This document shows positions 47,701-63,553 of a stretch of DNA of 64,000 bases, one piece after another. This DNA is from an uncultured Gammaproteobacteria bacterium (GTDB lineage: Bacteria; Patescibacteriota; Patescibacteriia; CAZGFX01). The notes beneath the pieces are model-generated. The model was not told the DNA's origin, searched no databases, and was given only the letters and a program-made list of their open reading frames with translations. Within the stretch, counting starts at the first letter, position 1, and every line of letters begins with the position of its first letter. The DNA is taken from contig CAZGFX010000002.1 in NCBI GenBank assembly GCA_964524845.1, positions 157,422-221,421 of the forward strand, written 5' to 3'. The position numbers and the translations under genes are program-made.

Positions 47701-50700
47701 GGATCCTCCCACACGACATCAATTCCAGCCGCCTGAGACAAACCATCTTGATCGTTTTCCAAATAAAATCCAATGCTGGCACCGAGTCCTTGAGCACCAG
47801 AACTATCATAATTTATTCTCTCTATACGTAACGCCTCCATAATATCAGACGCATCATTCTGAGAAAGAACCGAGAGTGTAGAAGCCGGAGTACTTGTACC
47901 AACACCAAGCCTATTATTTGTATCATCCCAGAATAGATTTGAATTATCTTGAGTGTACACACCACTTCCCCCAGCAAATACAAGTGAGCCCGATGTAAAT
48001 TGAGTACCGGTTCCTGTACCGCCTCTTGTAACATTTAAATATTGTTCTGATGTTAATGAGTTTGTTCCATTCCAATACGCTATATATCCGTTTGTTCCTG
48101 TTCCTGTTGCAACAGTTCCTGATGTTGGAAGCGTAATACTTGTAGCTCCTGATGTTGTAAAAAATAGCGTGTTCCCTGCAGTACCAAGAGGAACAACACC
48201 GGTATTATCTTGAAAAGTTATCGTCTTATCAGATACTGTTGGATCTGTTATAGCAAATGTTGTTTCGTATGTGTTGTCTGTTGCTCCTTCAAAAACCAGA
48301 GGAGAGGCACCTTGAATAACACCTCCGAGAGTCAGTGCATTAGAAGCGTTTCCGATCGATACAGCACCAGTTGATGTCCCTGTGTTTATATTTGTAGTAA
48401 AGTTTGAACTTGCATTTATAGAAGACGTTGCTCCTGACACAGTAAGTCCTCCTGTTCCTTGTATAACTCCTGTTGTTGAGTTAACACCAACAAAAGATGC
48501 TGCACCAGCACCTGAAACAGACCATTGTCCATCTGTAATAACAACATTTGCTGATGCATTTCCTATTGTAACCGTCCCCGTTGATGTACCGGTGTTTATG
48601 TTTGTAGCAAAATTTGAACCATGATTAATATATACAGTGTTTCCTGAAGTTACAAAAGAACCAGTGTTTGTAATACCCCGAACAGAAACTATTGCACCAG
48701 ATGAATTTACTTGAAACAAGTCTCCATTTCCTACAGTAAACAAAGAATCCGGAGATGAATCACCCACACCAACGTTTCCTCCATTAAAAACAGCAGAATA
48801 TGTGTTGTCACGACTATTTGCAGTATCAGTATCAACATATAAACCTGTAATTGTGTTTCTATATCCTCCAAAATCATCGTCTATGTTTATATGCATACCA
48901 TACACGGTGTCCACATAATCCTCGTTTTGTGGATTGTTTGAAATATTTAATTTATATCCATATAGTGTAGCAATATCACTTGGATTCATTGTTACATTAT
49001 GAGAAATACTTGAGGAAGCATCGGTTTGTAGATCTAAAGAGGTCAAACTAAGAACGGGATTTGTTACATCGCTTGACGAAATAGATATTGTATCATCTGT
49101 AATAGATGGCGAAAGGTTTGTTCCTGATCTGGTCCAATATCCCAGCGTTCCTGTTGATGGTGGTGTTGTAGTAAGATACCCTGAAGAATCAGTATATACA
49201 CCACTTTCCGTACCGAGCGAATTAAATAAAATATTTCCTGATGATGCTAAACCAGTGAGACCTGATGCGACACCGGCTGACGACACGTCCCACGATGATG
49301 TGTTTATAGCGAGCGTGTTTGATCCACCACCGATTGATACGGCGCCGGTTGATGTTCCTGTATTTATGTTTGTCGCGAAATTAGAACTTGCGTTCAATGA
49401 TACTGCTCCACCCGAGCTTGTCACTGCTCCAGTGTTTGTAATTCCTTGAACAGATGCTATTGCGCCAGATGAGTTGACTTGAAAAAGATCTCCGTTCCCT
49501 ACTGTGAAAAGAGATGCAGGAGTTGTATCTCCGATACCAATATTTCCTGCAGGAGTGATATTTAAAAATTCGTTCGTTCCTTCTAGAATACGCAAATTAC
49601 CTTCGCTTGACCCATCTGTTTCTTGTATACCGATTTTCCAATCGCGAGCAGTCGTTGTTTCGGCTGCGGTTGAATATACATGAAGCGATGATGGTCCTAA
49701 ATATAAATCTCTCCAACGCAAAGAAGACGATCCGAGATCATAAGAATCATCACTGTTTGGTCCAACTGATCCGGCAACTTGTAATTTAAATGTCGATGGT
49801 GCACTTGTGCCAACACCAACGTTTCCACTACTATTAACATATAAACTATTTACAGATGCGCCATCCTCAATTACAAAAACATTGATACTACCTCCTGTCG
49901 TATCTTGAATTCTAAAATCATCGTTTGCATTCACACCCATTTTCCATTGCCTAGCATCATTAATAAAATCAAAATCAGCAGCTCCATTAAGACCTGTATT
50001 TTCTATTCTTCCTGCAATATAACTTCCGGCCGCTGATCCAGAAACATGCAATCTTTGTTGAGGACTAGCAGTCCCGATCCCAAGCCTATTATTCGTATCA
50101 TCCCAAAAAAGGTTTGTATTATCTTGTGAGTACACTCCGCTTCCTCCAGCAAACACTAGTGATCCTGAAGTAAACTCAGTACCTGTACCGGTACCACCAC
50201 GTCCAACAGAAAGGTATTGTTCTGATGTTAATGAGTTTGTTCCATTCCAATACGCGACGTATCCATTTGTACCAGTTCCTGTTGCCATGGTTCCTGATGT
50301 TGGAAGAGTTATGCTTGTTGCTCCTGATGTTGTAAAAAATAGTGTGTTCCCTGCAGTGCCAAGAGGAACAACACCGGTATTATCTTGAAATGTTATTGTC
50401 TTATCAGATGCAGTGGTATCAGTGATTGAAAATGTAGTCTCATAAGTATCGTCTGTAGCTCCTTCAAACACAAGAGGAGAAGCACCCTGAATAATACCTC
50501 CTAGAGTTAATGCATTAGAAGAGTTTCCAATTGATACAGCTCCTGTTGATGTGCCTGTGTTTATATTTGTCGCAAAATTAGAATTTTCGTTGATAGATGA
50601 CGAGGCACCAGACACAGTAAGTCCTCCTGTTCCTTGTATAAGTCCTGTGGTTGAATTAACACCGACAAACGAAGCTGCACCAGCACCTGAAACAGACCAT

Positions 50701-52025
50701 TGTCCATCTGTAATAGCAACATTTGCTGATGCGTTTCCTATTGTAACGGTACCGGTTGATGTTCCTGTGTTTATATTCGTTGCAAAGTTTGAATTTGCAT
50801 TTAAAGAGATGACCGCACCACTTGCTGTGGTTGTTCCTGTAACAGTAAGGCCGGTTAAGCCTGATGCGACACCGGCTGATGACACATCCCACGATGATGT
50901 ATTTATTGCTAGTGTATTTGAATTTCCACCTATTGATACAGCACCCGTTGATGTTCCTGTATTGATGTTTGTCGCGAAATTAGAACTTGCATTCAGAGAT
51001 GCTATTCCGCCACTGGTTGTAGTTGCTCCCGTAACAGTAAGGCCGGTAAGACCTGATGCGACACCGGCTGACGACACGTCCCACGATGATGTATTTATTG
51101 CTAGTGTATTTGAATTTCCACCGATTGATACGGCGCCGGTTGATGTTCCTGTGTTTATGTTTGTAGCAAAATTAGAACTTGCGTTCAAAGATATTGCTGC
51201 GCCCGAGCTTGTGACTGCTCCAGTGTTTGTAATTCCTGTCATGTATGATGTTCCGTCCACTTCGAGATCATTCTGAATATATAAATCACCAAGTCCATCG
51301 GCGTTGTTTGCTGTACCAGCTGAACCAGTACGGATAAGTCCTCCATCTAGAACCCGAAGAGCGGATGTGCCATTGTCCTGTACATCGAGAATACCTCCTG
51401 TTCCTTGTTGATTGATGACGATCGCTGATCCACTTGATGTATTTACGGTCACAGATGTATTTGCTTGAAATGTGTATGATCCTGTTATTGTTTCGTTTTC
51501 TGATGTGTCTGCAAATTCTTCTTCTGATTTACCATCAAGAGCGTCTGTGTTAAATGCATAAGGAGATGCGGTCATTCTTTTTCTTGGCAAAAAAACTTCT
51601 TCGTACGATCCATTGTTATCAGCATCAAGACGAACCTCGAGATATAAGTTATCAGTATTGAAATCAAGAGAACCAGGAAGAGATGTATGAGTTCCTATAT
51701 CAACTGAGAATATTCCATCAGTAAGTGAAACTTGAGATGTTCCTGAATTCCACGTCTCTGTATAAGCGGCCGATCCTCCTGTGCTAACTGTAAAAAATGC
51801 AAACTGCATATTGTAACTGCTGTTTGCAATATTAATACCATTTGATGCTGTGATCTTGGCTTGATAAGAAAGTTTTTTGTTTATACCTGCGGCACCATAA
51901 ACAATCGGCACCCACGTAAAAAACAAACACGCTAAAACAAGCGCGGTAAGAAGCTTCCTTAAGACTGAAAATCGTATTAAAACAAGCATGGTAATTTTTA
52001 CGAAAACCTTTTCAGTTAGCGCCAA
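41751..52025 (-). CDS. giant (3424 aa) membrane-anchored, repeat-rich fibre-like surface protein with an internal phage tail-fibre S74-type intramolecular-chaperone-like module
   Basis: N-terminal TM/signal; Gly/Ser/Thr/Asn-rich beta-repeats; recurring motif [IV]G[IV]GDxxPxSL[FL]TVGxGDxFQVNSSG (tail-fibre-like NVGIGT..P class); about 64-aa and about 113-aa tandem repeat families; a large block duplicated 2160 nt apart. About 679 aa from the C-terminus lies SSRRYKKSITDIETDTSKIFDLRPVSYTPNEL...GLIAEEAAEVLPQLVFFDNQG...YEILSVLLLKEMQ (pattern of the peptidase-S74 chaperone domain), then a Pro/Thr-rich C-terminus. Confidence 0.85.
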   Translation of the reverse strand: MALTEKVFVKITMLVLIRFSVLRKLLTALVLACLFFTWVPIVYGAAGINKKLSYQAKITASNGINIANSSYNMQFAFFTVSTGGSAAYTETWNSGTSQVSLTDGIFSVDIGTHTSLPGSLDFNTDNLYLEVRLDADNNGSYEEVFLPRKRMTASPYAFNTDALDGKSEEEFADTSENETITGSYTFQANTSVTVNTSSGSAIVINQQGTGGILDVQDNGTSALRVLDGGLIRTGSAGTANNADGLGDLYIQNDLEVDGTSYMTGITNTGAVTSSGAAISLNASSNFATNINTGTSTGAVSIGGNSNTLAINTSSWDVSSAGVASGLTGLTVTGATTTSGGIASLNASSNFATNINTGTSTGAVSIGGNSNTLAINTSSWDVSSAGVASGLTGLTVTGTTTASGAVISLNANSNFATNINTGTSTGTVTIGNASANVAITDGQWSVSGAGAASFVGVNSTTGLIQGTGGLTVSGASSSINENSNFATNINTGTSTGAVSIGNSSNALTLGGIIQGASPLVFEGATDDTYETTFSITDTTASDKTITFQDNTGVVPLGTAGNTLFFTTSGATSITLPTSGTMATGTGTNGYVAYWNGTNSLTSEQYLSVGRGGTGTGTEFTSGSLVFAGGSGVYSQDNTNLFWDDTNNRLGIGTASPQQRLHVSGSAAGSYIAGRIENTGLNGAADFDFINDARQWKMGVNANDDFRIQDTTGGSINVFVIEDGASVNSLYVNSSGNVGVGTSAPSTFKLQVAGSVGPNSDDSYDLGSSSLRWRDLYLGPSSLHVYSTAAETTTARDWKIGIQETDGSSEGNLRILEGTNEFLNITPAGNIGIGDTTPASLFTVGNGDLFQVNSSGAIASVQGITNTGAVTSSGGAVSLNASSNFATNINTGTSTGAVSIGGGSNTLAINTSSWDVSSAGVASGLTGLASSGNILFNSLGTESGVYTDSSGYLTTTPPSTGTLGYWTRSGTNLSPSITDDTISISSSDVTNPVLSLTSLDLQTDASSSISHNVTMNPSDIATLYGYKLNISNNPQNEDYVDTVYGMHINIDDDFGGYRNTITGLYVDTDTANSRDNTYSAVFNGGNVGVGDSSPDSLFTVGNGDLFQVNSSGAIVSVRGITNTGSFVTSGNTVYINHGSNFATNINTGTSTGTVTIGNASANVVITDGQWSVSGAGAASFVGVNSTTGVIQGTGGLTVSGATSSINASSNFTTNINTGTSTGAVSIGNASNALTLGGVIQGASPLVFEGATDNTYETTFAITDPTVSDKTITFQDNTGVVPLGTAGNTLFFTTSGATSITLPTSGTVATGTGTNGYIAYWNGTNSLTSEQYLNVTRGGTGTGTQFTSGSLVFAGGSGVYTQDNSNLFWDDTNNRLGVGTSTPASTLSVLSQNDASDIMEALRIERINYDSSGAQGLGASIGFYLENDQDGLSQAAGIDVVWEDPRETREKASVIFNHMNNSSMSEAFRISYEGYIGIGDSSPTSLFTVGNGDLFQVNSYGNLVKVNNVSYSWPASQGASNTYLRNDGSGNLTWVTVSGTGDITTVGSMTSGDVFMDANADDDWLGLGAAAGRITFDDQATDYVNILSANVGIGETTPASLLTVGSGDTFQVNSSGNLVKVNNVTYSWPSAQGGAGTVLSNNGSGTLTWVTGSGTGDITTVGSMTGGDVFMDANADDDWLGLGASAGRVAFDDQATDYVNIMSANLGVGDATPASLFTVGDGDLFQVNSSGNIVKVNNVTYSWPGSQGSSNTVLRNDGSGNLTWVSAGTGDVTSVGSMTSGDAFSDANADDDWLGLGSIAGRIAFDDQATDYVNILSANVGIGDATPASLLTVGNGDLFQVNSSGYALYPLGAVGTPSVSFVSDPNTGIYSSGADALDFATGGTNRMTINSSGNISVGTTATSYSKFTISSNQANSSVYNWLTFDNQGGGYGDWTIHKQNTNDLAFSSGTTNGQTLSNTVMTLLYGGNVGVGDITPDQLLEIMSSGAANTQFTISNTNAGNYDSQIGFELADGTNTFTMGIDDSDSDKFKISTTALGTNDRFVIDSSGNIGIGTNTPSSILHLSKANTTATVIDTLTMNVTRPSMDNTGLGSGIVTYLEDNDGMGLEAGSIDTVWESAGVNSGVSSMRFNVRNTGSMIEAMRVDNAGYVGIGDSSPASLFTVGSGDLFQVNSSGYAYHPLGAVGNPSISFVGDTNTGVYSSGADTIDLTTAGTRRLSVTSGGLVGVGAFSNPLYPPSSLLDIEQTGTDGGLTDFIEITNTRQASSNTQTGVLFNQWFSGSVDDPGVDGSARIIVGTEGAWNDTASTRDSYFSLQTSLNGDLYERMRINSNGYMGIGDTSPDAMLDVASSSAINTNVFVVNTNAGDYDTAIGFQLAEGTNSFTMGVDDSDSDKFKISTTGLGTSDRFVIDSSGNIGLGFATPSTNLHLYENSTQTTPMLMLQQAGTGDPAIGFVSDTSSSSGHYVMGIDSSTSYDDFVIGFNDGSYPPTFDNSYGFFRVMPSDGSVNLSGIYDDSLEMKLGYFEDSYIRYTGYNGTSIRFGLGTNAPSANFHIYENSTETTPMLKIEQMGTGDATLMFKSGDDTVSMGIDTSAPNISKFKMSMSGDGGAWTGTALTVSYSGRELILGDPDDSNITIGSSIDMNRSLFLTSEDPQIAFSDTNVLVYSNSGPNDFNIETNSVNRFSITSDGDAYFYGGRLEADNDFFVNGDSFLGYTEIEGSFYASSTVAFDGLPSSGTAGTAIHINGSNQLFKYTSSRRYKKSITDIETDTSKIFDLRPVSYTPNELPDLPENRTFGLIAEEAAEVLPQLVFFDNQGRPDSVHYEILSVLLLKEMQKTKTNILDPLMNGTLALSLPKISSDGGVIQSDGLGNITTGTIKTNSFSSDNGLITSNGLGTLSVNNLAVTSGISGGTLTIGSFSSDGGLISTNGAGTLTAKNIVVTDTVNVGNGLADSHTESPIALADDTNTKLDGTFTSTSIVGALNELNRQVFDLAKYYQVGDLSIEQGDLVSIDPSDSESVVKATRTSGKSVIGVVTEHPNTTLETTSDDQSSKLVVLVGRVPVKIDINHSADIVTGDYLSSSPDMPGYAIKATGPGFVVGQAMSGWSSGIEPSTNSVIVFVQPQYWIGMATTDELYGLSLVFDDEEVVEGDDDVQVQPSAGDIQGVYIDPSDVQQTPDPNVQNIVEDINPQYNKWSLGDGLQIDVAIMSLTGALVVKEKAVFEKDLVVKGNVEIQGTLVVRDAVTLEKNLELKGGLSVVSKDVAGSVRFSYNQITQHIAFVAPKKNEVLVSLTPKFEDPDTARSWKGRVWVSNQTEEGFDIEMSEPVCDVATEPGCAKFVDVTWLAFEVGTDQINRDTINPNVPIYINNPTPPTDSLAEIIETSEPIPETPASPVIVDQPVSTPVTTTSSGETTPTSETGTDVSMVENQ
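46480..47560. repeat. three tandem copies of an about 339-nt (113-aa) unit inside the giant gene (VNNVTYSWP..QG...DANADDDWLGLG..AGRIAFDDQATDYVNILSANVGIGDATPASLLTVG)
   Basis: Near-identical DNA blocks starting near 46520, 46861 and 47200. Confidence 0.7.
50540..51290. repeat. intragenic tandem repeats of about 192 nt (64 aa: ASSNFATNINTGTSTGAVSIGGNSNTLAINTSSWDVSSAGVASGLTGLTVTG...) inside the giant gene; further copies near 48380-48620 and 49255-49450
   Basis: Repeated peptide strings visible on both the coding strand and antisense ORFs (50551-51276, 48382-48624, 49255-49449). Confidence 0.7.
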
Positions 52026-52103: not shown

Positions 52104-52138
52104 TAATAATAAAATAAAAATGGCTCTAATAAGCCATT
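52104..52138 (-). terminator. AATGGCT-ctaata-AGCCATT hairpin with minus-strand U-tract, downstream of the 52240 gene
   Basis: 7-bp stem; minus strand continues TTTTATTTTATTATTATAT. Confidence 0.45.
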
Positions 52139-52239: not shown

Positions 52240-53628
52240 TTATTTTATATATTCTTTATTAAGGATTTCTCGTGTTTTCGGACCGACATAGCCTGTCACT
52301 GAAATTCCTCTTGCACGCTGGAAATCTGCCACGGCATCTACTGTGACTTTTCCATAAATTGCACTTGGATTTGTGTTTGCTGGAAAAAATCCGATTTTTT
52401 GCAAGAATGTTTGAAGTAAACGAACCTCTTCATCGATAGATCCTTCTGTAAGAAACTTAGTAAACACAATTTTTGAATCAGTAGGAACCGGTTTTTGTTC
52501 AAAATTATCTGAAACAGAAGAACTTGTTGGCATTGAATTCTCGACTAGAATTGTATTTAAATCTGATGTAGTTATTCCTAAACTCAAAAACCTCATTATA
52601 GAATAAGCCGCGCTTCCGTCTTTCATGTAATACCTTTTTTGATCAGCTGGATTTATATACCACGCCTCTCCTCTAGATTCTACTTGAAGCAAAATTCTTC
52701 CGCTCAAACGATTAATTAATTTCGTATCATAAATTAAAGATCCACTTCCTATTGGATTTGTGTTTTTTATCAACGCCTCGTCTCCATCACTTATGCCATC
52801 TCCGTCCGTATCTTTCTGAGTAGGCGATGTTTTCAAAGCCTCCTCTAATTTATCAGATAAGCCATCATTATCCGTGTCAGCGTCTTTAAAACGATTTTCT
52901 GTTCCAATAGGTATCTTTGATAAATCAGAATTTGTAATTCCTAATCCGAAATTACGAAGCGCTTCATAAGCCACTGGACCATCTTTTAAATAAAAACGTT
53001 TTTTTGTAACAGGATACACATACCAAGCCTCACCCTTTGATTCTACTTGAAGAAGTATTTTTCCTGATACTCTATCCAACAAACTCCCACTGGTTATATT
53101 TTTATTAACCGAATTCGTGTCAGAAGAACCACCAACAACTAGCGACGGAAGTCCTTTAATAATGTTTGTTCCTTTTCCGTCGTTTGCTAGAATCGCCCCT
53201 GATATAAACTTCCATTCCGCAAATCCCTTCTTTTTTACAGTAAAATTAACAGTCATCACAAGACCCTTGTCTCCTTTAAATCCGGGATTGAATAAAACAC
53301 CTTCAAATTGAATCGCGTTCGTATTTTTTACAACGGGGGTTGTAAGCCAGAGCTGAACGATTGAATCGTTCGTAATAATCGAATCAACAGTAATATAATC
53401 CGATGAAAAAGACATCTCTCCAGAAACCGCGTTAATTGATTCTGAGTCGGAAGACGTTGTTATTTGTAAGGATCCTTTTTCCCCAATTGAATAATCTGAT
53501 TTGTTTGTTGTAATCGAAAAACTAGCAATTCCAATGGCATGTGTTTCCTTTTCGCACTGAAAAAAAAGTGCGCCTACAATAATTGCGACGAGGATGAAAA
53601 AATTAATTGTATAAAAAAATGTTTTCAT
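52240..53628 (-). CDS. secreted/anchored protein: cohesin-like beta domain, duplicated about 55-aa module, thrombospondin-type-3-like Ca-binding repeats, C-terminal peptidoglycan-binding (PG_binding_1-like) domain
   Basis: Start at MKTFFYTINFFILVAIIVGALF (4-nt ATGA overlap with the upstream gene); DADTDNDGLSDKLEEAL / DTDGDGISDGDEAL; duplicated SG[KR]ILLQVES[KR]GEAWY..P...KR[FY]Y[LM]KDG..AY; C-terminal EEVRLLQTFLQKIGFF...GKVTVDAVADFQRARGISVTGYVGPKTREIL. Confidence 0.6.
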   Translation of the reverse strand: MKTFFYTINFFILVAIIVGALFFQCEKETHAIGIASFSITTNKSDYSIGEKGSLQITTSSDSESINAVSGEMSFSSDYITVDSIITNDSIVQLWLTTPVVKNTNAIQFEGVLFNPGFKGDKGLVMTVNFTVKKKGFAEWKFISGAILANDGKGTNIIKGLPSLVVGGSSDTNSVNKNITSGSLLDRVSGKILLQVESKGEAWYVYPVTKKRFYLKDGPVAYEALRNFGLGITNSDLSKIPIGTENRFKDADTDNDGLSDKLEEALKTSPTQKDTDGDGISDGDEALIKNTNPIGSGSLIYDTKLINRLSGRILLQVESRGEAWYINPADQKRYYMKDGSAAYSIMRFLSLGITTSDLNTILVENSMPTSSSVSDNFEQKPVPTDSKIVFTKFLTEGSIDEEVRLLQTFLQKIGFFPANTNPSAIYGKVTVDAVADFQRARGISVTGYVGPKTREILNKEYIK

Positions 53629-54554
53629 GATGTTTTTTTGAGCTTGTATTTTAGAATCAGTTTTATAAGCAGACCAAGAAGCAGGATTCCACCAACCAAA
53701 TACCATACGTAATATATTATACTTATAGACTCAAATATGTTTCTTGGAGGAATTGTTATAATTCGCGCATTTCCATAATTATCAACTGCTTTTATTAATA
53801 TGGTGCTTCTTAACCGCTGGTCTGATAGAATAAAAGGACTTTCTGCTTTTTTCCAAACAACAGAATTGTAATCTCCATTAAAATTTTGAATCTCTGCTAT
53901 AAAATATTCTTTTATCCCGCTTTCTTTGTCTTGTGTATGAAAAATCAAAGAATTTTTTCCATCAAAAAGATTTTTATCTTGCCCGATTATAGGAGAAAAT
54001 ATTTCTGGTGGCATCTCGTCTTTTTCTAAATTTTTTGTTTTTATGCCATCATTAGAAACAGGTGCGTCAGTTTTTTTTATGCTTATTTGTATTACTGGTT
54101 TTGAAACAGATAATAAACTTCCAAGACCATCGTTTTTGAGAACAACAACATCTTGAAACAGAGCATTCCACACGCCATTATCAACTGCTTTGCATTTCAA
54201 TTTAAAAATATTTCCATTTGATGATGAATAACCTCCCGGAATAACTCCTGAAAAATCAATTATTCCCTTCTCGTCTATGATTGGTTTTTTTATCCACAAA
54301 GAAACAAAAGAGGTTCCTGTGTTTATACTATTACACGATAAAACCGAAGATTGAATTGATAACCTTCCTTCAATGGCGTTTAATGATTCTTTTTCAGTAT
54401 CTATTAAAACATCAATATCTAATACATCCCCTACTTTTTTATCATTATATATTGGCTCTATAAAAATACGTGCAGCATTTGAAAAAGAAGGAAATAAAAA
54501 AATAGAAAGGACTGCAACAAAAAATAATAATTTATATCTATTTATGATACTCAT
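53625..54554 (-). CDS. signal-peptide protein with cohesin-like domain and C-terminal TM anchor
   Basis: 309 aa; MSIINRYKLLFFVAVLSIFLFPSFSNA signal; beta-sandwich-like region VGDVLDIDVLIDTEKESLNAIEGRLSIQSSVL...GNIFKLKCKAVDNG; C-terminal YYVWYLVGGILLLGLLIKLILKYKLKK anchor. Cohesin call is tentative. Confidence 0.45.
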   Translation of the reverse strand: MSIINRYKLLFFVAVLSIFLFPSFSNAARIFIEPIYNDKKVGDVLDIDVLIDTEKESLNAIEGRLSIQSSVLSCNSINTGTSFVSLWIKKPIIDEKGIIDFSGVIPGGYSSSNGNIFKLKCKAVDNGVWNALFQDVVVLKNDGLGSLLSVSKPVIQISIKKTDAPVSNDGIKTKNLEKDEMPPEIFSPIIGQDKNLFDGKNSLIFHTQDKESGIKEYFIAEIQNFNGDYNSVVWKKAESPFILSDQRLRSTILIKAVDNYGNARIITIPPRNIFESISIIYYVWYLVGGILLLGLLIKLILKYKLKKTS

Positions 54555-54557
54555 ATA

Positions 54558-55634
54558 TTATCCTGTCCAATGATAAATCAATATACTAAAATCAACCAAG
54601 GTTATCTTTCCGTCCTTATTTAAATCCATATTATTCGGATATCCGCTTCTACCATACCAATACATCATTATGGAAAAATCAACCAAGTTGATTTTTCCAT
54701 CAGTATTAAAATCAACTCCTTTTACAACCAAAAGAGGCTCTGATTTGATTGTTTTATCACTTACATCAAAAACACTCAAAACACTCTCGTTGCTTTTTCT
54801 ACTATTTTTCATCGCCTGAACAAGAAATGAATATTCTCCCTTTTTTAGGTTTTCGGTACTAATATTGATTACATACGCACCACTCCTACCACTTTTGCTA
54901 TTTATATTTATTTGTTTCTCGCCACCGTTAAGACTTGTTGTTATATCACTATAAGGCATAGTATATCCAGAAACAATTAACGAATCTCCTTGTTTCACTT
55001 CCTTAGAATCTGTATATACTGTTGGGGAAATAAAAATATCATTAAACGAAACCGTTGTTCCTTTTTCTACTTTTACGGGAATTGACACGAATCCTGATCG
55101 AAGCCCAGAAGGATCTGTAACAAATATTGTAAAAGTATATTGACCCGGATTAACATCGTTGATACTAAAATTAAAAACTCCATCACTTCCTATATTAATA
55201 GTTTTGACGGAAACGGAATCTCTCAGTACTGACAAAATGCTATTAGGATATGCGTATCCTGAAAAAAACACATCCGTGGTTGTGATCTGTGAAATAATAG
55301 ATCCTCCTCCACCACCACCGCCTCCTCCACTTCCTCCGCTAGGACAAGAACCACAATCAACGGCACAATTACTACATGTTTCCGTTGGTGTTGTGCATAT
55401 TCCATTACCACAAATAACAGGGTCTGTTTCATCATTATCAAGCGCATCTATACATCCCGGATCTGTTGGAAAATCAATTTTTGTATCACTGTCATTATCA
55501 ATTCCATCACTACACTGTGATGTCGCTGTAATTTCAAGCGTGAATTGAGAAGTTCCTGCACTATATAAAATCATAGGCAGAATAATAAATCCACCGAGAA
55601 TCATTGAGTATATTACTGTTTTTAAAATTTTCAT
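54558..55634 (-). CDS. dockerin (type I)-containing secreted protein with Cys/Asp-rich Ca-binding-like N-terminal module and poly-Gly linker
   Basis: C-terminus DFNTDGKINLVDFSIMMYWY...DLNKDGKITLVDFSILIYHW is two canonical dockerin Ca-binding repeats (D-x-N-x-D-G-K-I-N/T-x-x-D); GGSGGGGGGGGGS linker; N-terminal TM/signal. Confidence 0.7.
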   Translation of the reverse strand: MKILKTVIYSMILGGFIILPMILYSAGTSQFTLEITATSQCSDGIDNDSDTKIDFPTDPGCIDALDNDETDPVICGNGICTTPTETCSNCAVDCGSCPSGGSGGGGGGGGGSIISQITTTDVFFSGYAYPNSILSVLRDSVSVKTINIGSDGVFNFSINDVNPGQYTFTIFVTDPSGLRSGFVSIPVKVEKGTTVSFNDIFISPTVYTDSKEVKQGDSLIVSGYTMPYSDITTSLNGGEKQININSKSGRSGAYVINISTENLKKGEYSFLVQAMKNSRKSNESVLSVFDVSDKTIKSEPLLVVKGVDFNTDGKINLVDFSIMMYWYGRSGYPNNMDLNKDGKITLVDFSILIYHWTG

Positions 55635-55651
55635 GATCTATATATATAATA

Positions 55652-58600
55652 TCAATTTGCGATAACGCTGACCACCATCGGGAGAGAATAACTACCAGCA
55701 CCCTGACTACTTGGGACTGTTTGTGATAATGTTGCTCCGGTTATATCCCAATAACATTCTGTTTGCGATAATGTGTTTGTTGAAAGAAGAGTAATAGAAT
55801 CAGTTACACCTTGATTAAATGCGGATGAGCCACCAACAGAAAGACCTATGCGTGTACATCCTGATTCAGGCGTAATTGTTATTACCGATGGATTGATTGT
55901 TAATTGTCCTCCAACACTATCTACATCTCCTCCGTCTGCGCACCCAACAGGAATACCGTTTGGATCATTAAAATCATATGCACTTCCTCCGGCCTGCCAC
56001 GTTGCTACCGCACCACCTGAAGGAGCTATCGAAAGTGTCCACCGATTGTTTCTGGTTGCATTCGATACACGTATCTTCTCAGCACTTACACCAAGTGTAC
56101 CTGTGGTTGTTTGACATTGAAATTGAGTAGTAAGCGCTGAAAAACCGACTGACGGTGATCCCACGCTTACACCTCCTGCATCAACTATATCAACTGACAA
56201 TATTCCAGCATCTTTTTTTGCCCACCTCACACTCATCATAGCAAAATCCCAATCCCTTGTTCCAGGATTTACAGCAGTACCAGCAGAAGTACGCATGCGC
56301 ATGTTCATATTGTTTGTGGATGTATTCACATTATCATCTGGCGATGTCTGATACTCCGAGTAAACCCAACTATCGCTCCACGAATATGTTGTTGCAGCGT
56401 TAGTGTCTGTACTTGGTGTATTCACCCATCCACTAGTTCCTGCAACTCCACTATAATCACGAATCTGCGGATCCATGGTTTGAGCGGCATTATTTGATCT
56501 ATATTTTGCCGCATAATGAACTCCTGTAATAGACGTATTTGCTCCAACCGACACAGGAAATGACATGTTTTGAGATGCTGCATATTCAGCTCCGGTTCCA
56601 TCTGCATCGTTATCCTGAGGATACCACGTTGTAGGAGTATATTCTGTTACAGCCGTTGCTTGCCAAGTACTTGTTGCTGGCGTTGCTGTTTTTCCTTCCC
56701 TTGTGTCACGAGTATTCACACAATTTGTCGCTGTTCCTGTTCCCCAAGATATTTCACATTGTGATGAGTCTGTATTAACAGATCCGAGCATCATATAAAT
56801 TCGATCAAACTGCATATTATAAACTGTTCCGGGAGAATTGGTTAAAAAACGAATCCAAATCTCACCTGTTCCGGATATATAATCGGAAAGAGTAAATCCC
56901 GGTATGGTAGTGCTATTAAACGCATATCCATACTCAGTATCAGTCGCGCACGCGGATCCAGTTACACTTCCTCCGAGTTGAGTCCATGTTCCGTTTGAAA
57001 ATCTTCTCGCATATACACCGAATGTAAGTGCTGTATTTGAAACACAAATTTCAGGCGAGACCAGAATTGTGTTCATTGTTGAATACGAATTTATATTTTT
57101 AAATATATAATAAAAATCAACAGCTTGTGATATGGCCGGCATAGGAATTGTAATCTTGTTGCCATCACTTGCTGTTAAATTCGTTGAAACAGCTCCAACA
57201 AGATCGGATATGTAATTTGTTGTTGTTCCAGCGCTTGTAATTGTCATGTTTGCCGGTTCATAAACAGGATCGACAGCAACTTCGACTCTTGCAACATCTA
57301 GTCTGTGCTGAACTGTGGATGCGACAGTCGAGTATGTACGAATAAGAACTCTGTTATTACTTCCGGTATTAATAAAATTTGTAAGTAGTGTACTTATTGG
57401 ACTTCCGGGGGTTGTGACGCGTGTTGAAAAATATCCATCATATATTTCATAGTTTCTTGATGTGTCTGCTGTGTTCGTATATGTTGTTTTTCTTGGATGA
57501 AGTGTTCTCCATCCTCCTCCTGTACACTGAGCATCAGCTGCATTATCAACACTTGTTGTTGATGTCCAGTCACATATCTGATGAATATATGCGTTTCCTG
57601 TTGTTATGTTCGTGTCCTCTATTGTTATAATCATCTTGTTCGCACCATATAACTCTACATTATCAAAATAAACCTGTTTATTCAGTCCTCCTGGATTTGC
57701 ACGAGCAGTAGTCCAATATATATCATCCGATCCGAAAGAACCTCTATATGAACGAACATTTGAAACGCTAGATGCGACCTCAGATCCTGTAACAAGCTGG
57801 CCACCTGTAACTGGATACTGAGCGATCAAAGTACGACGATTAGTCTCTTCTATCCATCTCACGCTCATCATTGCAAAATCCCAATCTCTTGTTCCAGGAT
57901 TTGTCGTGGTGCCAGCAGAAGTACGCATACGCATATTCATATTGTTTGTGGATGTATTCACATTATCATCAGGAGATGTCTGATATTCGGCATTCACCCA
58001 ACTATCACTCCAAGAGTATGTTGTTGCGGCGTTAGTGTCGGTACTTGGTGTATTTATCCATCCGCTGGTTCCTGCAATTCCGCTATAATCACGAATCTGT
58101 GGATCCATGGTTTGAGTAGCATTATTTGATCTATATTTTGCCGCATAATGTATTGCCGTCACAGACGTAAGTGGACTTACTGTTATTGGAAATGACTCGT
58201 TTTGAGATGTTGCATATTCAGCTCCAATTCCATCTGCATCGTTATCCTGAGGATACCATGCTGTAGGAGTATATTCTGTTACTGCTGTTGCTTGCCATGT
58301 TGTTGTTGCCGGCGTTGCTGTTTTCCCTTCTCTTGTATCACGAGTATTCACACAATTTGTCGCCGTACCTGTTCCCCAAGATATTTCACATTGTGATGAG
58401 TCTGTATTAACAGATCCGAGCATCATATAAACACGATCAAACTGCATATTGTAAACTGTTCCAGGGGTGTTGGTAGCGAATCTTATCCGTGCTTCTCCAC
58501 TGTTTGATATATGATCAGCAAAATTAAAACTAGGGATCGTAGTACTATTAAAAGCATATCCGTATTCGGTGTCAGTCGCACACACTGATCCGGTTACGCT

Positions 58601-59629
58601 TCCTCCGAGTTGAGTCCATGAACTGGAATTAAAATTATATGCATATATTCCAAAGGTCAGAGCTGCATTTGAAACACAAACCTCCGGAGAAACTAGGATT
58701 GTATTCATTCCTTTGTATGCTTTTATATTTGAAAATGAAAAATATATGTCCGCCGCCTGTGATATAGCCGGCATAGGCACGGTCATCTTCGTATCATCAC
58801 TTGCCGTAAGGTTTGTCGACACGGCCCCAACAAGATCGGATATGTAATTTGTTGTTGTTCCAGCGCTTGTAATTGTCATGTTTGCTGGTTCATATACAGG
58901 ATCGACAGCAACCTCTACTCTTGCTACATCTAAATGATGTTGATAATTAGATGTTATTGTAGAATATACACGAATAAGAATTCTATTATTATTACTTGTG
59001 TTTATGAAGTTTGTTAAGGGTGTACTTATAGGACTTCCGGGAGTTGTGACGCGAGTTGAAAAATATCCGTCATATATTTCATAATTTCTTGATGTATCCG
59101 CTGTATTCGTATATGTGGTTTTTCTTGGATGAAGTGTTCTCCACCCTCCTCCTGTACACTGTGTGTCGGCTATATTATCAACTCCTGTAGTAGAAACCCA
59201 ATCACACACTTGATGTGTATATGAAGCAGCTGATATCCTGTCTTCTATTGTTATAATCATCTTGTTCGCACCATATAGCTCTACATTATCAAAATAAACT
59301 TGTTTATCTGTTCCTCCTGGATTTGTTCGTGTGGTTGACCATAATATATCATCCGAACCAAAAGCACCACGATACGAACGAACATTTGTCGCACTTGATG
59401 CATTCTCTGTTCCAACAACAAGCTGGCCACCTGTAGGAGTAAACTCATATATCGCCTTTGCACTAGGAACTCCGTCATTATTTAAAATATTAGAATAAGT
59501 ATTATTATAAAAATTATTATCAAAAGACTTTGGAATAATATTACTTCCATTCAATAAAAATACTCCCGCAAGCACGAATATTGCGATAATGCGTCTAAAA
59601 AACAAAATATATTTTGTGTTTATTTTCAT
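55652..59629 (-). CDS. large (about 1325 aa) secreted Thr/Asn/Ser-rich surface protein with an about 1.63-kb tandem intragenic duplication and a C-terminal WxL-like domain
   Basis: Start at MKINTKYILFF (signal); two about 544-aa near-identical halves (antisense ORFs 56570-56764 and 58202-58396 are near copies, offset 1632 nt); C-terminal about 200 aa ...NNRWTLSIAPSGG...SQTVPSSQGAGSYSLPMVVSVIAN homologous to the whole 62525-63229 protein. Confidence 0.7.
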   Translation of the reverse strand: MKINTKYILFFRRIIAIFVLAGVFLLNGSNIIPKSFDNNFYNNTYSNILNNDGVPSAKAIYEFTPTGGQLVVGTENASSATNVRSYRGAFGSDDILWSTTRTNPGGTDKQVYFDNVELYGANKMIITIEDRISAASYTHQVCDWVSTTGVDNIADTQCTGGGWRTLHPRKTTYTNTADTSRNYEIYDGYFSTRVTTPGSPISTPLTNFINTSNNNRILIRVYSTITSNYQHHLDVARVEVAVDPVYEPANMTITSAGTTTNYISDLVGAVSTNLTASDDTKMTVPMPAISQAADIYFSFSNIKAYKGMNTILVSPEVCVSNAALTFGIYAYNFNSSSWTQLGGSVTGSVCATDTEYGYAFNSTTIPSFNFADHISNSGEARIRFATNTPGTVYNMQFDRVYMMLGSVNTDSSQCEISWGTGTATNCVNTRDTREGKTATPATTTWQATAVTEYTPTAWYPQDNDADGIGAEYATSQNESFPITVSPLTSVTAIHYAAKYRSNNATQTMDPQIRDYSGIAGTSGWINTPSTDTNAATTYSWSDSWVNAEYQTSPDDNVNTSTNNMNMRMRTSAGTTTNPGTRDWDFAMMSVRWIEETNRRTLIAQYPVTGGQLVTGSEVASSVSNVRSYRGSFGSDDIYWTTARANPGGLNKQVYFDNVELYGANKMIITIEDTNITTGNAYIHQICDWTSTTSVDNAADAQCTGGGWRTLHPRKTTYTNTADTSRNYEIYDGYFSTRVTTPGSPISTLLTNFINTGSNNRVLIRTYSTVASTVQHRLDVARVEVAVDPVYEPANMTITSAGTTTNYISDLVGAVSTNLTASDGNKITIPMPAISQAVDFYYIFKNINSYSTMNTILVSPEICVSNTALTFGVYARRFSNGTWTQLGGSVTGSACATDTEYGYAFNSTTIPGFTLSDYISGTGEIWIRFLTNSPGTVYNMQFDRIYMMLGSVNTDSSQCEISWGTGTATNCVNTRDTREGKTATPATSTWQATAVTEYTPTTWYPQDNDADGTGAEYAASQNMSFPVSVGANTSITGVHYAAKYRSNNAAQTMDPQIRDYSGVAGTSGWVNTPSTDTNAATTYSWSDSWVYSEYQTSPDDNVNTSTNNMNMRMRTSAGTAVNPGTRDWDFAMMSVRWAKKDAGILSVDIVDAGGVSVGSPSVGFSALTTQFQCQTTTGTLGVSAEKIRVSNATRNNRWTLSIAPSGGAVATWQAGGSAYDFNDPNGIPVGCADGGDVDSVGGQLTINPSVITITPESGCTRIGLSVGGSSAFNQGVTDSITLLSTNTLSQTECYWDITGATLSQTVPSSQGAGSYSLPMVVSVIAN

Positions 59630-59657
59630 CTTTTCAGTATGTAAAAAAGTGCAATTT

Positions 59658-61247
59658 TTATTCAATTATCATTTCTTTCTCTATGGTTGGAATTGTTTCA
59701 ATTCTTAATGATTTCTCATCTGTAAAAAACCGATAATCTGTTTCATTGATTGTGAAATTATTTCGTTCGATATCAGATTCGATGGTCTGTGAAATAATTG
59801 TGTTTGTAAGAAAATTAAATACGACAATTGATCCTTTATCGGGGCCTACCCAAAAAAGCATGTCATCAATATTCTGATAAGGTATATCGAAATTCATTGT
59901 TTCTTCATCTGCGACTTTTTGCCATTGTGTCTCATCGGTTTGTGTGTCAGCGCGCCACATCTCTTTTTTTCCTTCTGCAGTTTCAAGTGTGTAAATTTCT
60001 CGTCCATCATCAGTATTTTTTATATCAACAACATTATAAAAAGACATATCTATTCCAGGTGTGATGTCTCCGTCAAATTCTTCATATTCCACATCAATCT
60101 GTATTCCATCAACAACTAGCTCCATCCCGCGCTCAAGTGCTTTATCTGAAATAACAAATGAAACACTTAGTCTTTTCATATCCCAAAATGTTTTCAACGG
60201 AAGAATGAAATCGCTATCAAGAACACCGCCTTTTTCATATACTGGACCAAGCTCTATATCTGTTTTACCATCAAAAGAATAATACAAGAATGCCATTTCC
60301 ATATTTTCTTTTTCCAAAACATCTTCTTCTTTTTTATCTTGATTAAGTTCTAATAATTGATCCGATTCGTTTGGCACAATAATTGACTGTTCTTGATTTT
60401 CTTTATTTACATCAATATTCGGTGTATCAATTATTTCTTCATTCATTACTTGAGATTCGTCTGATTTTGTATTTGGTGTTTCATCGGTTTGTACATCTGA
60501 TTCCACTGCTGGAGCAATGTTTTCTTTTGGTTGTTCATCAAATAAAAGTGGTGTTGCGTTTATATCAGAATCGGCCTGAGTCGGCTCTTCCAAAATAAGT
60601 GTTTCCGATTCTTTGTTTTGGTCATCCACAACAAAAACACCACCATATGATGATTTACCAGCGATCATTTGTTCGCCTTGTTGAGAAATTGGTTCGTTTG
60701 ACTCAGAAACAGGCGGTGTATCTGCCGGTTTTTCAGTCTGATCGACTGATGTGGGTGTTTCTTTCTCATCAACGGTTGGTGCTAACTCTGTTGCTGTAGG
60801 AATATCCGATATTATTTCTGTTTCTTGAACAGGTTCTATTGCGCCTTGTTTTTCTTTTTCAGCTTCTTGTTCTGTTGCATCTGAATTATAAGATTGGTCA
60901 GTGACGTCTTGAATTGTTTTTTCTTCTGTTTCAGAAATTGTTTCAGAGGCGCGAGTTTTCCAATTAATATGCAGAGATGCTTTTTTAATAATTCCTCTTG
61001 GGACAATCCCTGTAAAAGAAGTGCACACTACACGAGATGATGGCACTTCTTTTTTAATTGTAGTATCTTCATCATTGTTATTTTCCTGTCTCAAAACATC
61101 AACATTTTCTTTAATAATATTAACTGTGGAACAAACAAGTGGACGGAACGACGACGTTGTCACATTTTCAGGAACAATATCAAGAGACCCCCACACAGCC
61201 CCACCTATACAAACAAGTAGCACAACAACAATACCGATGAGTTTCAT
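59658..61247 (-). CDS. membrane-anchored highly acidic low-complexity protein (start at MKLIGIVVV)
   Basis: N-terminal TM, then E/D/T/Q-rich disordered region and a C-terminal globular part; no named motif. Confidence 0.45.
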   Translation of the reverse strand: MKLIGIVVVLLVCIGGAVWGSLDIVPENVTTSSFRPLVCSTVNIIKENVDVLRQENNNDEDTTIKKEVPSSRVVCTSFTGIVPRGIIKKASLHINWKTRASETISETEEKTIQDVTDQSYNSDATEQEAEKEKQGAIEPVQETEIISDIPTATELAPTVDEKETPTSVDQTEKPADTPPVSESNEPISQQGEQMIAGKSSYGGVFVVDDQNKESETLILEEPTQADSDINATPLLFDEQPKENIAPAVESDVQTDETPNTKSDESQVMNEEIIDTPNIDVNKENQEQSIIVPNESDQLLELNQDKKEEDVLEKENMEMAFLYYSFDGKTDIELGPVYEKGGVLDSDFILPLKTFWDMKRLSVSFVISDKALERGMELVVDGIQIDVEYEEFDGDITPGIDMSFYNVVDIKNTDDGREIYTLETAEGKKEMWRADTQTDETQWQKVADEETMNFDIPYQNIDDMLFWVGPDKGSIVVFNFLTNTIISQTIESDIERNNFTINETDYRFFTDEKSLRIETIPTIEKEMIIE

Positions 61248-61339
61248 CGTATGAAGAGTAAAAAAATGATAAGCTGAATAATTTCGAGATTTGTAATCTC
61301 TTTTTTGCATTTGTTTTAGATATAATGCTCCATGTCAAC

Positions 61340-62488
61340 TTATGAATGAGGGGGAACTTTAATTTTTGTACCTGACAAAACAGTAAACGGTGGTCTTATA
61401 GAATTAACTTTAGCCAGAAGCCTCCACGAAACATTGTGTTTTTCTGCTATTTTCATGATGTCCTCATTTTCACAAACAATATAATCAACCCATGTTGTGT
61501 TTATCCATTTCTTGCGTTTAAAATACAATACGATAAGCGCAACAAGTACAATAATTAGAACTAGAATAATTAATTCAATAATAAGCGCCGGAAATGTAGG
61601 AAAACTAAAAAACCACTTGGAATCACCATCGATTATCTTCGATGGATTATCTGTTTTTACTCCTATACCAGCCGAATTACTTGAATCATATGCGATTGCG
61701 ACTGAGGTTTTGAAAAGACCTCCCCAAAAAGGCTTTTTGAGTTCAAAATTCCATTCTGATGTTTCTCCTCGAAGTACAGGATAATCTCCGCCGTGTGTCA
61801 TTAATAATGGACCAAAAAAATAACTGGTTGATAAATTTACTGTCGTATCAATTGAAACATTTCCATTGTTTTTTACTTGTGGTTTAAGCAAAAAGCTTCC
61901 ATCATCACGTTTCGTAATTGCAAAACCAACAATCTCAAGAGAACGTTTTATTTCTCCGGGTATTGTAATGGCGACACGAAGTCCTGTTCTAAGAGACAAG
62001 TTCATACCTGGAGTATCGGTGGTATCTTTCTTCTCTTGCATTAAAATACAACCATTATGTTCTCCTACGCTTGCGTTTCCTGGTACTGAGATAACAAATG
62101 GTATAATTTCGTTTGTTTTTGGTTCGAGTGTGACTTCTGTTTTTGAAAGACTGATCCATGCTCCAACGTCTTTCTTTTCTTCAACAAACTGTTTACAAGC
62201 GAACCCTCCTCCGGATGACGGAGTAGAATCAGCCGAGTATACGAGAATGGTTTTCTTTTCAGAGCTATTATTTACTACGACCACGCCTTCGTCTTTAGTT
62301 GAACCTGGCTCCAGTGTATGAATAAAAATATCCTCTGTACGAGAATTGTCTTGGCGCGGATACGCTGGCCGTCCTCCTATTCCGCCGTATTCAACTGCGG
62401 ATACTGGGATAGCCATAAACAGAGCAAGTGCGCACACGATTGTTGCGCACAAGCCCCGTTGTTTCTTAACCGAATTATATATCGACAC
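61340..62488 (-). CDS. cell-surface protein with signal peptide, DUF916/DUF3324-like (CscA-like) ectodomain, C-terminal TM anchor followed by a LysM motif
   Basis: 382 aa; signal MSIYNSVKKQRGLCATIVCALALFMAIPVSA; TM ALIIELIILVLIIVLVALIVLYF then KRKKW; C-terminal YIVCENEDIMKIAEKHNVSWRLLAKVNSI...GTKIKVP LysM-like. Confidence 0.45.
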   Translation of the reverse strand: MSIYNSVKKQRGLCATIVCALALFMAIPVSAVEYGGIGGRPAYPRQDNSRTEDIFIHTLEPGSTKDEGVVVVNNSSEKKTILVYSADSTPSSGGGFACKQFVEEKKDVGAWISLSKTEVTLEPKTNEIIPFVISVPGNASVGEHNGCILMQEKKDTTDTPGMNLSLRTGLRVAITIPGEIKRSLEIVGFAITKRDDGSFLLKPQVKNNGNVSIDTTVNLSTSYFFGPLLMTHGGDYPVLRGETSEWNFELKKPFWGGLFKTSVAIAYDSSNSAGIGVKTDNPSKIIDGDSKWFFSFPTFPALIIELIILVLIIVLVALIVLYFKRKKWINTTWVDYIVCENEDIMKIAEKHNVSWRLLAKVNSIRPPFTVLSGTKIKVPPHS

Positions 62489-62524
62489 AAGAATCTAAAT
62501 TAGAAACCAATTAGAAAATACTGT

Positions 62525-63229
62525 TTATGATGCAACGACGGAGAGTGTCATATTGATATCATAATCAGCAGCCGCTGGCTGTGAACCAGGAATTGTTTGT
62601 GAAACGGCAACTCCTTGAATTGTATAATCAGCAACATCGCTTGCGCTGGCAGCAGCAGTAGCGATTGTAATGCTATCAGTTGAATCTTCAACATAAGCAG
62701 CAGAACTTCCGAGAGTTACATTTGATGTGTTACATCCACCTACACATTGTCCGTTTGCTAGAGTCGCACCAGCTGGATTAACCGTCATTTGTCCACGAAT
62801 AGTGTCAGTATCTACTCCATCAGTACATCCTGATCCAGAAGAGTCATTGAAATCTAAATCGGTACCTGCGCTATCCCACATTGCTGTAGGAGCTGATGCC
62901 GCAAGAGACAATGTCCAACCAGAATCAGCAGCATCAGGATTCGCAACATATATTTGTTGTGTTCCTGTACCGAACGTACCTGTTGAACCAGGTGTCTGAC
63001 ACGCAAATGTAGCACTTACCGCAGAGAAGGCCACAGAAGGACTTCCAACACTTACATAAGATCCATTAACAATATCAGTAGATAATGTTCCTGGATTGAT
63101 CGTAAGTGTAAAATTGGACGTCGCAGAAGCGTATACATATGCTACTGTTCCAAAAGAAAGTGCAATAGCCACAAACATAGCGACACCAATGTTTGTTTTT
63201 TTCAAAATTGAATAAAAAATCTTTGACAT
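62525..63229 (-). CDS. small secreted WxL-like domain protein (CscB-like)
   Basis: 234 aa; signal peptide; SGWTLSLAAS motif; homologous over its whole length to the C-terminus of the 1337-aa protein (SVGSPSV[AG]FSA..., DSIT[IL], SQT[IV]P.SQ...[LM].[LV]SV[VI]A[SN]). Confidence 0.5.
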   Translation of the reverse strand: MSKIFYSILKKTNIGVAMFVAIALSFGTVAYVYASATSNFTLTINPGTLSTDIVNGSYVSVGSPSVAFSAVSATFACQTPGSTGTFGTGTQQIYVANPDAADSGWTLSLAASAPTAMWDSAGTDLDFNDSSGSGCTDGVDTDTIRGQMTVNPAGATLANGQCVGGCNTSNVTLGSSAAYVEDSTDSITIATAAASASDVADYTIQGVAVSQTIPGSQPAAADYDINMTLSVVAS

Positions 63230-63553
63230 ATTTTTATATTATATAACTATATAAACCTCAATATTCTTAAACCTTTTTTATAAACGAGGCTCCTTAATTA
63301 TAAACAATTTTGAAGAAAAGATAAAGAGAAAATAAAAAAAATAAGCCATAAAAATGGCTTATATAGAGGGTTGTTATAATATTTATAAATTTTATCTTCT
63401 TTTCATCGGGATATCTATTGAAATAAGGGATTTTTCATCTATTTGTATTATAATAGATTACCAGGTTTTATAACCGTTTTTTTCAGCTCTTATCGTATAT
63501 TTTCCTTGTTCTGAAGATAAAAAATATATTTTTATCCATCCAAAAACTTTTTT

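Follow-up and report, generated by a model that had tools for sequence, protein, structure and literature searches.

The window analyzed here is a 64-kb stretch of contig CAZGFX010000002.1 (assembly GCA_964524845.1) from a member of the Patescibacteria. It carries three consecutive genes, which we call g1, g2 and g3, encoding a secreted protein with a C-terminal dockerin and two proteins with cohesin folds (Table 1). An earlier note, made from the sequence alone, had described these three open reading frames (ORFs) as a surface operon, and all three do exist at the stated coordinates on the minus strand. The apparent operon is longer than these three. All genes within 52.2-63.2 kb lie on the minus strand, and g1, g2 and g3 close a compact block of seven (63229..52240), with intergenic gaps of -8 to 36 nucleotides (nt). 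The trio thus appears to form the 3' tail of a seven-gene operon. A terminator-like hairpin at 52138-52119 probably marks the end of this operon, and another at 63362-63341 is a probable boundary of the transcription unit.

Four-nucleotide ATGA overlaps, and hence co-translation, had been proposed for the trio. This holds for g2 and g3, where the g3 start at the overlap (53628) agrees with database protein P0174, but not for g1 and g2, which are separated by a 3-nt gap (TAA-TAT-ATG) within the same reading frame. With TAA-TAT lying between the in-frame genes at 54555-54560, read-through of one stop codon would join the dockerin protein to the cohesin protein.

Table 1. Genes and features of the trio and of its transcription unit, in window coordinates (aa, amino acids; TM, transmembrane; AF2, AlphaFold2).
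Feature	Position	Strand	Basis
Terminator-like hairpin with T-run	52119..52138	-	Lies between g3 stop and giant gene start
g3, wall-associated cohesin protein, 462 aa	52240..53628	-	Pfam, model, paralogy to g2
g3 PG_binding_1, aa ~400-456	52261..52431	-	Pfam, PDB sequence matches
g3 composite module, aa ~180-362: ~60-aa domain, TSP3 repeats, second ~60-aa domain	52543..53091	-	Pfam and homologs
g3 cohesin-fold domain, aa 33-165	53134..53532	-	Structure model, Foldseek, ortholog Pfam matches
g2, type I membrane protein, 309 aa	53625..54554	-	AF2 model, Foldseek, hydropathy, homolog family
g2 C-terminal TM helix and basic cytoplasmic tail, aa 273-309	53628..53738	-	AF2 model, hydropathy
g2 FN3/Ig-like domain, aa ~186-270	53745..53999	-	Family profile and AF2 model
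g2 cohesin-fold domain, aa 28-160	54075..54473	-	AF2 model, Foldseek, family Pfam matches
g1, secreted dockerin-bearing protein, 358 aa	54558..55634	-	Pfam Dockerin_1, Y_Y_Y, Big_6
g1 dockerin module, aa 306-358, two F-hand Ca-binding repeats	54561..54719	-	Pfam, homolog alignment, profile search
g1 Ig-like beta-sandwich domains (two), aa ~116-195 and ~200-296	54747..55289	-	Pfam Big_6, Big_13, Y_Y_Y
g1 G12 hinge (run of 12 glycines)	55299-55340	-	Sequence
g1 acidic Cys-rich N-terminal module, aa 38-98	55341..55523	-	Read from sequence, family alignment
1337-aa exported protein, C-terminal ~185-aa WxL-like domain ("large WxL"-type)	55652..59665	-	Domain comparison
550-aa exported acidic protein, without recognisable domains	59658..61310	-	Pfam, NCBIfam, hydropathy
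382-aa WxLIP_PGBD (DUF916) protein, TM segment(s) and LysM	61340..62488	-	Pfam, hydropathy
234-aa "small WxL"-type protein, first operon gene: signal peptide and WxL-like domain only	62525..63229	-	Domain comparison
Terminator-like hairpin	63341..63362	-	Upstream of 234-aa gene

One dockerin and two cohesin folds

The protein g1 ends in a dockerin. Behind a signal peptide it consists of acidic Cys-rich repeats, with a weak NCBIfam match to acid_disulf_rpt (NF033662), a poly-glycine hinge, two immunoglobulin (Ig)-like domains and the dockerin itself. Residues 308-353 match Pfam Dockerin_1 (PF00404) at 30.6 bits against a cut-off of 22.9 (E 4e-7). The module is built from two tandem segments of ~22 residues, each a 12-residue F-hand loop followed by a helix. 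Both calcium-binding repeats read earlier from the sequence have their ligand residues intact, the loops DFNTDGKINLVD and DLNKDGKITLVD carrying D, N or T at Ca-ligand positions 1, 3, 5, 9 and 12. The helix residues (NLVDFSI-AYW) are nearly the same in both repeats, which gives the module a near-perfect internal symmetry. A profile of the g1 family also finds solved dockerins, namely 2y3n_B (E 2e-5), 1daq, 2mte, 4fl4_A and 5nrm_B.

The g1 family comprises at least 976 homologs (clusters at 90% identity), and we took residue statistics from the best 120. All 120 are full-length, and the dockerin always stands at the extreme C-terminus. At the Ca-ligand positions of the two repeats, conservation in this set is 94% or more; the one exception is position 1 of repeat 2, where 82 of the 120 (68%) have Asp. 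Within g1, the dockerin is the most conserved folded part: its mean pairwise identity is 0.65, as against 0.50 in the Ig domains and 0.36 in the Cys-rich head.

Type I dockerins canonically carry a Ser-Thr-type recognition pair at loop positions 10-11 and are specific for type I cohesins. We did not find this pair at positions 10-11 of either g1 repeat. Both repeats have Leu-Val there, and these residues are kept in at least 66% of homologs (mostly at least 87%) at each of the four positions. Thus, of the "bona fide type-I dockerin" first proposed, the dockerin stands, whereas the type I label has no support beyond a generic Pfam name, because Leu-Val replaces Ser-Thr.

The protein g2 is a membrane-anchored cohesin-fold protein. 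Its layout runs from a signal peptide through a cohesin domain, a linker and an FN3-like domain to a transmembrane helix and a basic tail. The AF2 model is confident, with an overall predicted local distance difference test (pLDDT) score of 90.6. Behind a nine-strand beta domain at residues 28-160 (pLDDT >90), the chain continues through a flexible linker into another beta domain (189-268) and then into a long helix at the C-terminus (273-308). Hydropathy places a hydrophobic window at 273-291, followed by the tail KYKLKKTS. When the model was compared with the PDB by Foldseek, matches were almost exclusively cohesins, led by a cohesin with an FN3 domain (2w1n, E 1e-9) and followed by 4ums, 2vo8, 5m2s, 4dh2 and 6kgd. 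Against single cohesin modules, target template-modelling (TM) scores were 0.69-0.77, with a root mean square deviation (rmsd) of 2.5-3.2 A. The cohesin-like domain and C-terminal membrane anchor predicted for this protein are therefore both borne out by the model. The family profile relates the second domain to the FnIII-like domain of a chitinase (6bt9, E 0.002). We detected 53 g2 homologs of ~290-320 aa, all from Patescibacteria-type sources.

The protein g3 carries a second, paralogous cohesin fold. Its layout comprises a signal or anchor sequence, a cohesin, a ~180-aa terminal-tag module with TSP3 repeats, a Ser-rich linker and PG_binding_1. Its N-terminal domain and the g2 cohesin share 28% identity (E 6e-12). 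The model is confident only for residues 33-165 (pLDDT 77-96), the rest having pLDDT <60. For residues 33-165, the top 50 PDB matches are cohesins without exception (50/50), with 2vo8 at a TM-score of 0.78 and an rmsd of 2.7 A. PG_binding_1 (PF01471) is matched at 57.1 bits against a cut-off of 23 (E 2e-15), with PDB sequence matches 5tv7, 7rum and 4lpq, and TSP3_bac (PF18884) at 47.6 bits against a cut-off of 25 (E 1.4e-12) over two stretches. Each of the three elements named for g3 by the earlier note (a second cohesin-like domain, TSP3 repeats and a peptidoglycan-binding module) is thus present, and two of the Pfam families that it put forward as checks, Dockerin_1 in g1 and PG_binding_1 in g3, score above threshold.

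The cohesins of g2 and g3 have several motifs in common (NA-EG, GNS..W..P, G.I.FSG and L.NDG.GT). By alignment and on the g2 model, these map to strands 3, 5 and 6 and to the end of strand 8. In solved complexes, the 8-3-6-5 sheet of cohesins is the dockerin-binding face.

The g3 of the window differs from its orthologs behind the cohesin. Elsewhere the cohesin is followed by FN3, Big_13 or Ig-like domains, a transmembrane helix and a charged cytoplasmic tail that is probably a coiled coil (L005:10849-12561, L003:10882-12363 and L001:7799-9523). In the window, the terminal module and PG_binding_1 take the place of these parts, and together they indicate, at the level of sequence, that the g3 cohesin is likely to be retained in the wall. 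Proteins P0176-P0178 combine a cohesin with the terminal module and have no PG_binding_1.

The ~180-aa module of g3 is widespread in secreted proteins. Modules with 55-72% identity to it stand at the very N- or C-terminus of a wide variety of secreted proteins of Patescibacteria, among them sulfotransferase-like proteins, trypsin-like proteases, subtilases, and CARDB, fn3 and PAP-like proteins. Its ~60-aa domain has the motif G.ILLQVE..GEAWY..P...KRYY..DG..AY..(L/M)R..(G/S)LGI and occurs in 3,630 representative clusters (2,399 at E<=1e-30), nearly always in two copies. Searches of Pfam, NCBIfam and the PDB gave no match to this domain. The module has the appearance of a tag for surface retention or sorting that is used throughout the lineage, and it may exceed the cohesin-dockerin genes in novelty.

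Conservation of the trio and its genomic surroundings

The order of the three genes is conserved across Patescibacteria. We scanned for loci through the g2 family, using one genome per species, and called the trio genes with hidden Markov models (HMMs) built from the g1, g2 and g3 families. The loci found through g2 are numbered L001-L041; the scan yielded 34 loci in addition to the window, essentially all labelled Patescibacteria. Wherever upstream DNA is retained, in about 34 distinct loci, the genes run without exception from g1 (body and dockerin) through g2 (cohesin and FN3-like domain) to g3 (cohesin with or without an FN3-like domain). An independent start from three g1 homologs on long contigs returned the same order in 3/3. 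The lineages concerned include Kaiser-, Wolfe-, Taylor-, Doudna-, Falkow-, Portnoy- and Torokbacteria, Paceibacterota and Ca. Microsyncoccus archaeolyticus PMX.50, whose locus (L025, BTXY01000001.1) has an intact g1-g2-g3 of 352, 290 and 571 aa. In five loci (L001, L027, L036, L037 and L038), g3 is followed by a third cohesin gene. Several records that hold the trio (L010, L018, L020, L021, L026 and L032; third-party (TPA) metagenome-assembled genomes) are titled "uncultured Gammaproteobacteria bacterium". Given their content, these titles are probably placeholders or wrong labels.

The four genes upstream of g1 look, on domain comparison, like a WxL/WxLIP cluster for non-covalent display on the wall. 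Such clusters have been defined by the presence of two WxL proteins and, no more than four genes away, at least one WxLIP protein (PGBD, HBD and a transmembrane helix) (PMC10599100). The 382-aa protein matches WxLIP_PGBD at 28.5 bits against a cut-off of 27.3 and also matches LysM; no WxLIP_HBD was detected. In 15 loci a homolog of this protein lies near the trio, as a rule immediately before g1. A ~185-aa domain with a GWTL motif is common to the 234-aa protein and the C-terminal part of the 1337-aa protein, and it is also found upstream of g1 in L017, L023, L029, L030, L042 and L043. The seven-gene layout as such is repeated in L029, L030 (partial), L042 and L043. Pfam WxL does not match the ~185-aa domain, in which a single W-x-L motif is present. 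Its alignment by hhalign to a bona fide WxL protein of L003 is weak (E 0.08), and its profile gave nothing useful against the PDB. By eye, the 1337-aa protein divides into two long halves that are nearly identical (roughly aa 70-620 and 620-1150), with repeats such as TGGQLV.G.E.ASS..NVRSYRG.FGSDDI.W.T.R.NPGG..KQVYFDNVELYGANKMIITIED; a self-BLAST of the protein did not report this repeat.

On its other side, g3 is separated from a giant gene by a 214-nt spacer that contains the terminator-like hairpin. The giant gene encodes a repetitive protein of 3424 aa (window 41751-52025), whose sole Pfam match is Peptidase_S74, an intramolecular chaperone, at aa 2751-2806. Neither Pfam nor the unfiltered dockerin HMM (E<=10) finds a dockerin or cohesin in it. 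Giant proteins weakly similar to that of the window neighbour the trio in L001, L011, L020, L036 and L040, and most loci are without one. The similarity to those in L001, L036 and L040 involves residues ~2950-3135 (E 1e-12 to 3e-8). Farther away, at window 32612-34096, lies a subtilase (Peptidase_S8) that has a FlgD_ig domain at its C-terminus and matches Por_Secre_tail and CHU_C below threshold. A Por_Secre_tail protein is also found near the trio in L042 and L043, an odd sorting-domain signal for a monoderm-like lineage.

Interpretation and comparison with known systems

We favor, with moderate confidence, reading the trio as a minimal non-cellulosomal cohesin-dockerin surface-display cassette of Patescibacteria (also known as the candidate phyla radiation, CPR), with g1 as the cargo docked on the cohesin of g2, of g3 or of both. 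The parts list that the earlier note drew up is real: the trio supplies a dockerin, a pair of cohesin folds, an anchor in the membrane and a peptidoglycan-binding module, and it has no glycoside hydrolase. Each cohesin protein has a single cohesin, and a Pfam search of g1-g3 found neither a glycoside hydrolase nor a carbohydrate-binding module (CBM). The parts-list reading is reinforced by the invariant g1-g2-g3 synteny in loci retaining upstream DNA. Since an unfiltered search with the family dockerin HMM (E<=10) of all ORFs in the window returned g1 alone, and no second dockerin, g1 is most simply the cargo.

Under this reading, Sec signal peptides would export all three proteins. The C-terminal helix of g2 would seat it in the membrane, and its FN3-like stalk would lift the N-terminal cohesin off the membrane. 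The paralogous cohesin of g3 would be held in the wall here by the terminal module and PG_binding_1, and in most relatives by a membrane anchor. The C-terminal dockerin of g1 would then plug, in a calcium-dependent manner, into the cohesin of g2 at the membrane, of g3 at the wall, or of both. Dual binding is conceivable as well: because its two Ca-binding F-hands are symmetric, the dockerin may bind in either orientation. Once docked, g1 would have its Ig-like domains and its acidic Cys-rich head, on the poly-glycine hinge, facing outward, and these outward domains are probably an adhesin or an envelope component.

Several observations weigh against such a cassette, and the first group concerns the cohesins. 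Pfam Cohesin (PF00963), which had been suggested as a check, is silent on both g2 and g3 even at E<=1. The domains clearly pass on fold, however, in that the models superpose on solved cohesins, and the joint failure of HMM and fold prediction that the earlier note named as refuting did not occur. No Pfam or NCBIfam family matches g2 at all, and a phmmer search of g2 against PDB sequences returned no match. Only 11 of 51 g2 family members match PF00963 (best E 1.8e-5), and the family profile reaches cohesins of R. flavefaciens and C. thermocellum in the PDB just weakly (E 0.005-0.016). Orthologs of g3 in other loci do match PF00963, mostly weakly or under the gathering score. Furthermore, the g2 cohesin has a lower mean pairwise identity (0.35) than the FN3-like domain (0.46), which would be unexpected were the cohesin the key interface. 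The second group concerns stoichiometry, with two or three cohesin genes for each single dockerin gene, and one locus (L027:1-4321) in which two extra Dockerin_1 proteins of 608 and 825 aa lie directly upstream of the trio.

The stoichiometry and the extra dockerins of L027 speak for an alternative in which the g2 and g3 cohesins are general sockets for several dockerin proteins encoded elsewhere, with g1 as one client or as an adaptor, in the manner of a mini-scaffold such as the earlier note had in view. The dockerin census, moreover, covers only 64 kb of the genome. However, that census found no second dockerin, and across ~34 distinct loci g1 is the only dockerin consistently linked to cohesins. 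The best 120 of the at least 976 matches to g1 are likewise all full-length proteins of the g1 type, and many secreted enzymes of these lineages bear the terminal module of the g3 type rather than a dockerin. Thus, we consider general sockets unlikely.

The failure of Pfam Cohesin on g2 and g3, and the only moderate conservation of the cohesin, speak for a second alternative, in which the domains do not bind each other. The cohesin folds would then be generic beta-sandwich spacers or ligand-binding (adhesive) modules, the dockerin-like EF-hand pair would be a calcium-dependent stabilizer or a wall-binding element, and the genes would be adjacent as those of co-secreted envelope components. For many of the cohesin-like and dockerin-like modules outside cellulosomes, no partner is known to have been demonstrated, which adds to the case. 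Against it, the three genes always come in one order and are closely linked; the dockerin shows strong conservation and internal symmetry; the conserved cohesin motifs gather on the canonical binding sheet; and the solved structures retrieved by the fold search are without exception dockerin-binding modules or members of the cohesin family. We therefore regard the absence of mutual binding as rather improbable. As for the suggestion that the cassette docks the 3424-aa fibre to the cell wall, gene adjacency and the weakly similar giant proteins beside five other trios favor it, but it is rejected as largely refuted and very improbable, since the fibre matches only Peptidase_S74 and has no dockerin or cohesin, a terminator-like hairpin and the 214-nt spacer intervene, and most related loci have no giant gene beside the trio.

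The display cassette may belong to something larger. Because the first four genes resemble a WxL/WxLIP display cluster, the whole seven-gene unit would build surface protein complexes. In its widest form, which we put forward only as speculation, the unit would be a core, phylum-wide surface organelle of Patescibacteria, in which the membrane cohesin and the second cohesin jointly hold the conserved Ig-domain adhesin g1 for host-cell attachment or for organization of the unusual envelope of these episymbionts, and some lineages would have a parallel, as yet undescribed tagging system, the ~180-aa module, that retains many secreted enzymes at the surface.

Patescibacteria are abundant episymbionts, most of them uncultured, and their attachment to hosts and the making of their envelopes are largely obscure. 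In the proposed display cassette, a fixed and widely conserved set of three exported proteins, the sole recognisable logic is that of one plug (the dockerin) and two sockets (the cohesins). It offers a concrete and cheaply testable "plug-and-socket" hypothesis of the way in which these cells mount a conserved surface protein. The trio is present in Ca. Microsyncoccus archaeolyticus PMX.50, an archaeal parasite in enrichment culture, which makes experiments feasible. Lacking a Pfam match, the cohesins are invisible to standard annotation; genome surveys record orphan "dockerin" proteins in these lineages and miss the system, because the cohesin partners are unannotated. We found no description of the cassette in literature keyword searches or in a term search of the Ca. 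Microsyncoccus paper. Non-cellulosomal cohesin and dockerin modules as such are already well known, and the cassette is a variant of these.

The upstream genes can be compared with the WxL/WxLIP (Csc) clusters of Firmicutes, whose core consists of a WxLIP protein with small and large WxL proteins (PMC10599100; PMC1534035). The layout is the same, with a small domain-only protein, a large protein ending in the domain, and a DUF916/WxLIP_PGBD protein with a transmembrane segment (PMC10599100; PMC1534035), and both systems would serve non-covalent surface display. In contrast to the Firmicute clusters, the domain in the window is missed by Pfam WxL, no WxLIP_HBD is detected, and there is an additional LysM. 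The cohesin-dockerin genes g1-g3 lie outside the published core of these clusters (PMC10599100).

The trio has the same folds as the anchoring scaffoldins OlpA, OlpC and SdbA of the Clostridium thermocellum cellulosome (type I and II cohesins; 3ul4, 4dh2 and 2bm3), where a surface-anchored cohesin receives, as is proposed for the trio, a C-terminal dockerin with duplicated calcium-binding repeats. Unlike cellulosome scaffoldins, the trio is without SLH domains, CBMs and dockerin-tagged glycoside hydrolases. A cellulosome would entail a multi-cohesin scaffoldin with a CBM, together with dockerin-tagged carbohydrate-active enzymes, and g1-g3 provide neither. The recognition positions of the dockerin are Leu-Val rather than the Ser-Thr of classical type I dockerins, and the bacterium that carries the trio is an ultra-small Patescibacterium, not a cellulolytic Firmicute.

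Close parallels are also found among non-cellulosomal cohesin-dockerin pairs, for instance the modules of the GH84C/GH33 toxin complex of Clostridium perfringens (2w1n, 2vo8 and 2jh2), which supply the top structural matches of g2 (2w1n) and g3 (2vo8), and the cohesin of Archaeoglobus fulgidus (2xdh). As in the trio, there is one cohesin in each protein, in many cases with an FN3 domain behind it, and in none of the three systems is there a multi-cohesin scaffoldin or a cellulose-binding module. The C. perfringens modules are appended to glycoside hydrolases, whereas none of the trio proteins is an enzyme. The trio differs further in that its cohesins are anchored by a transmembrane helix or by PG_binding_1, and in that it forms a fixed three-gene cassette conserved across a phylum.

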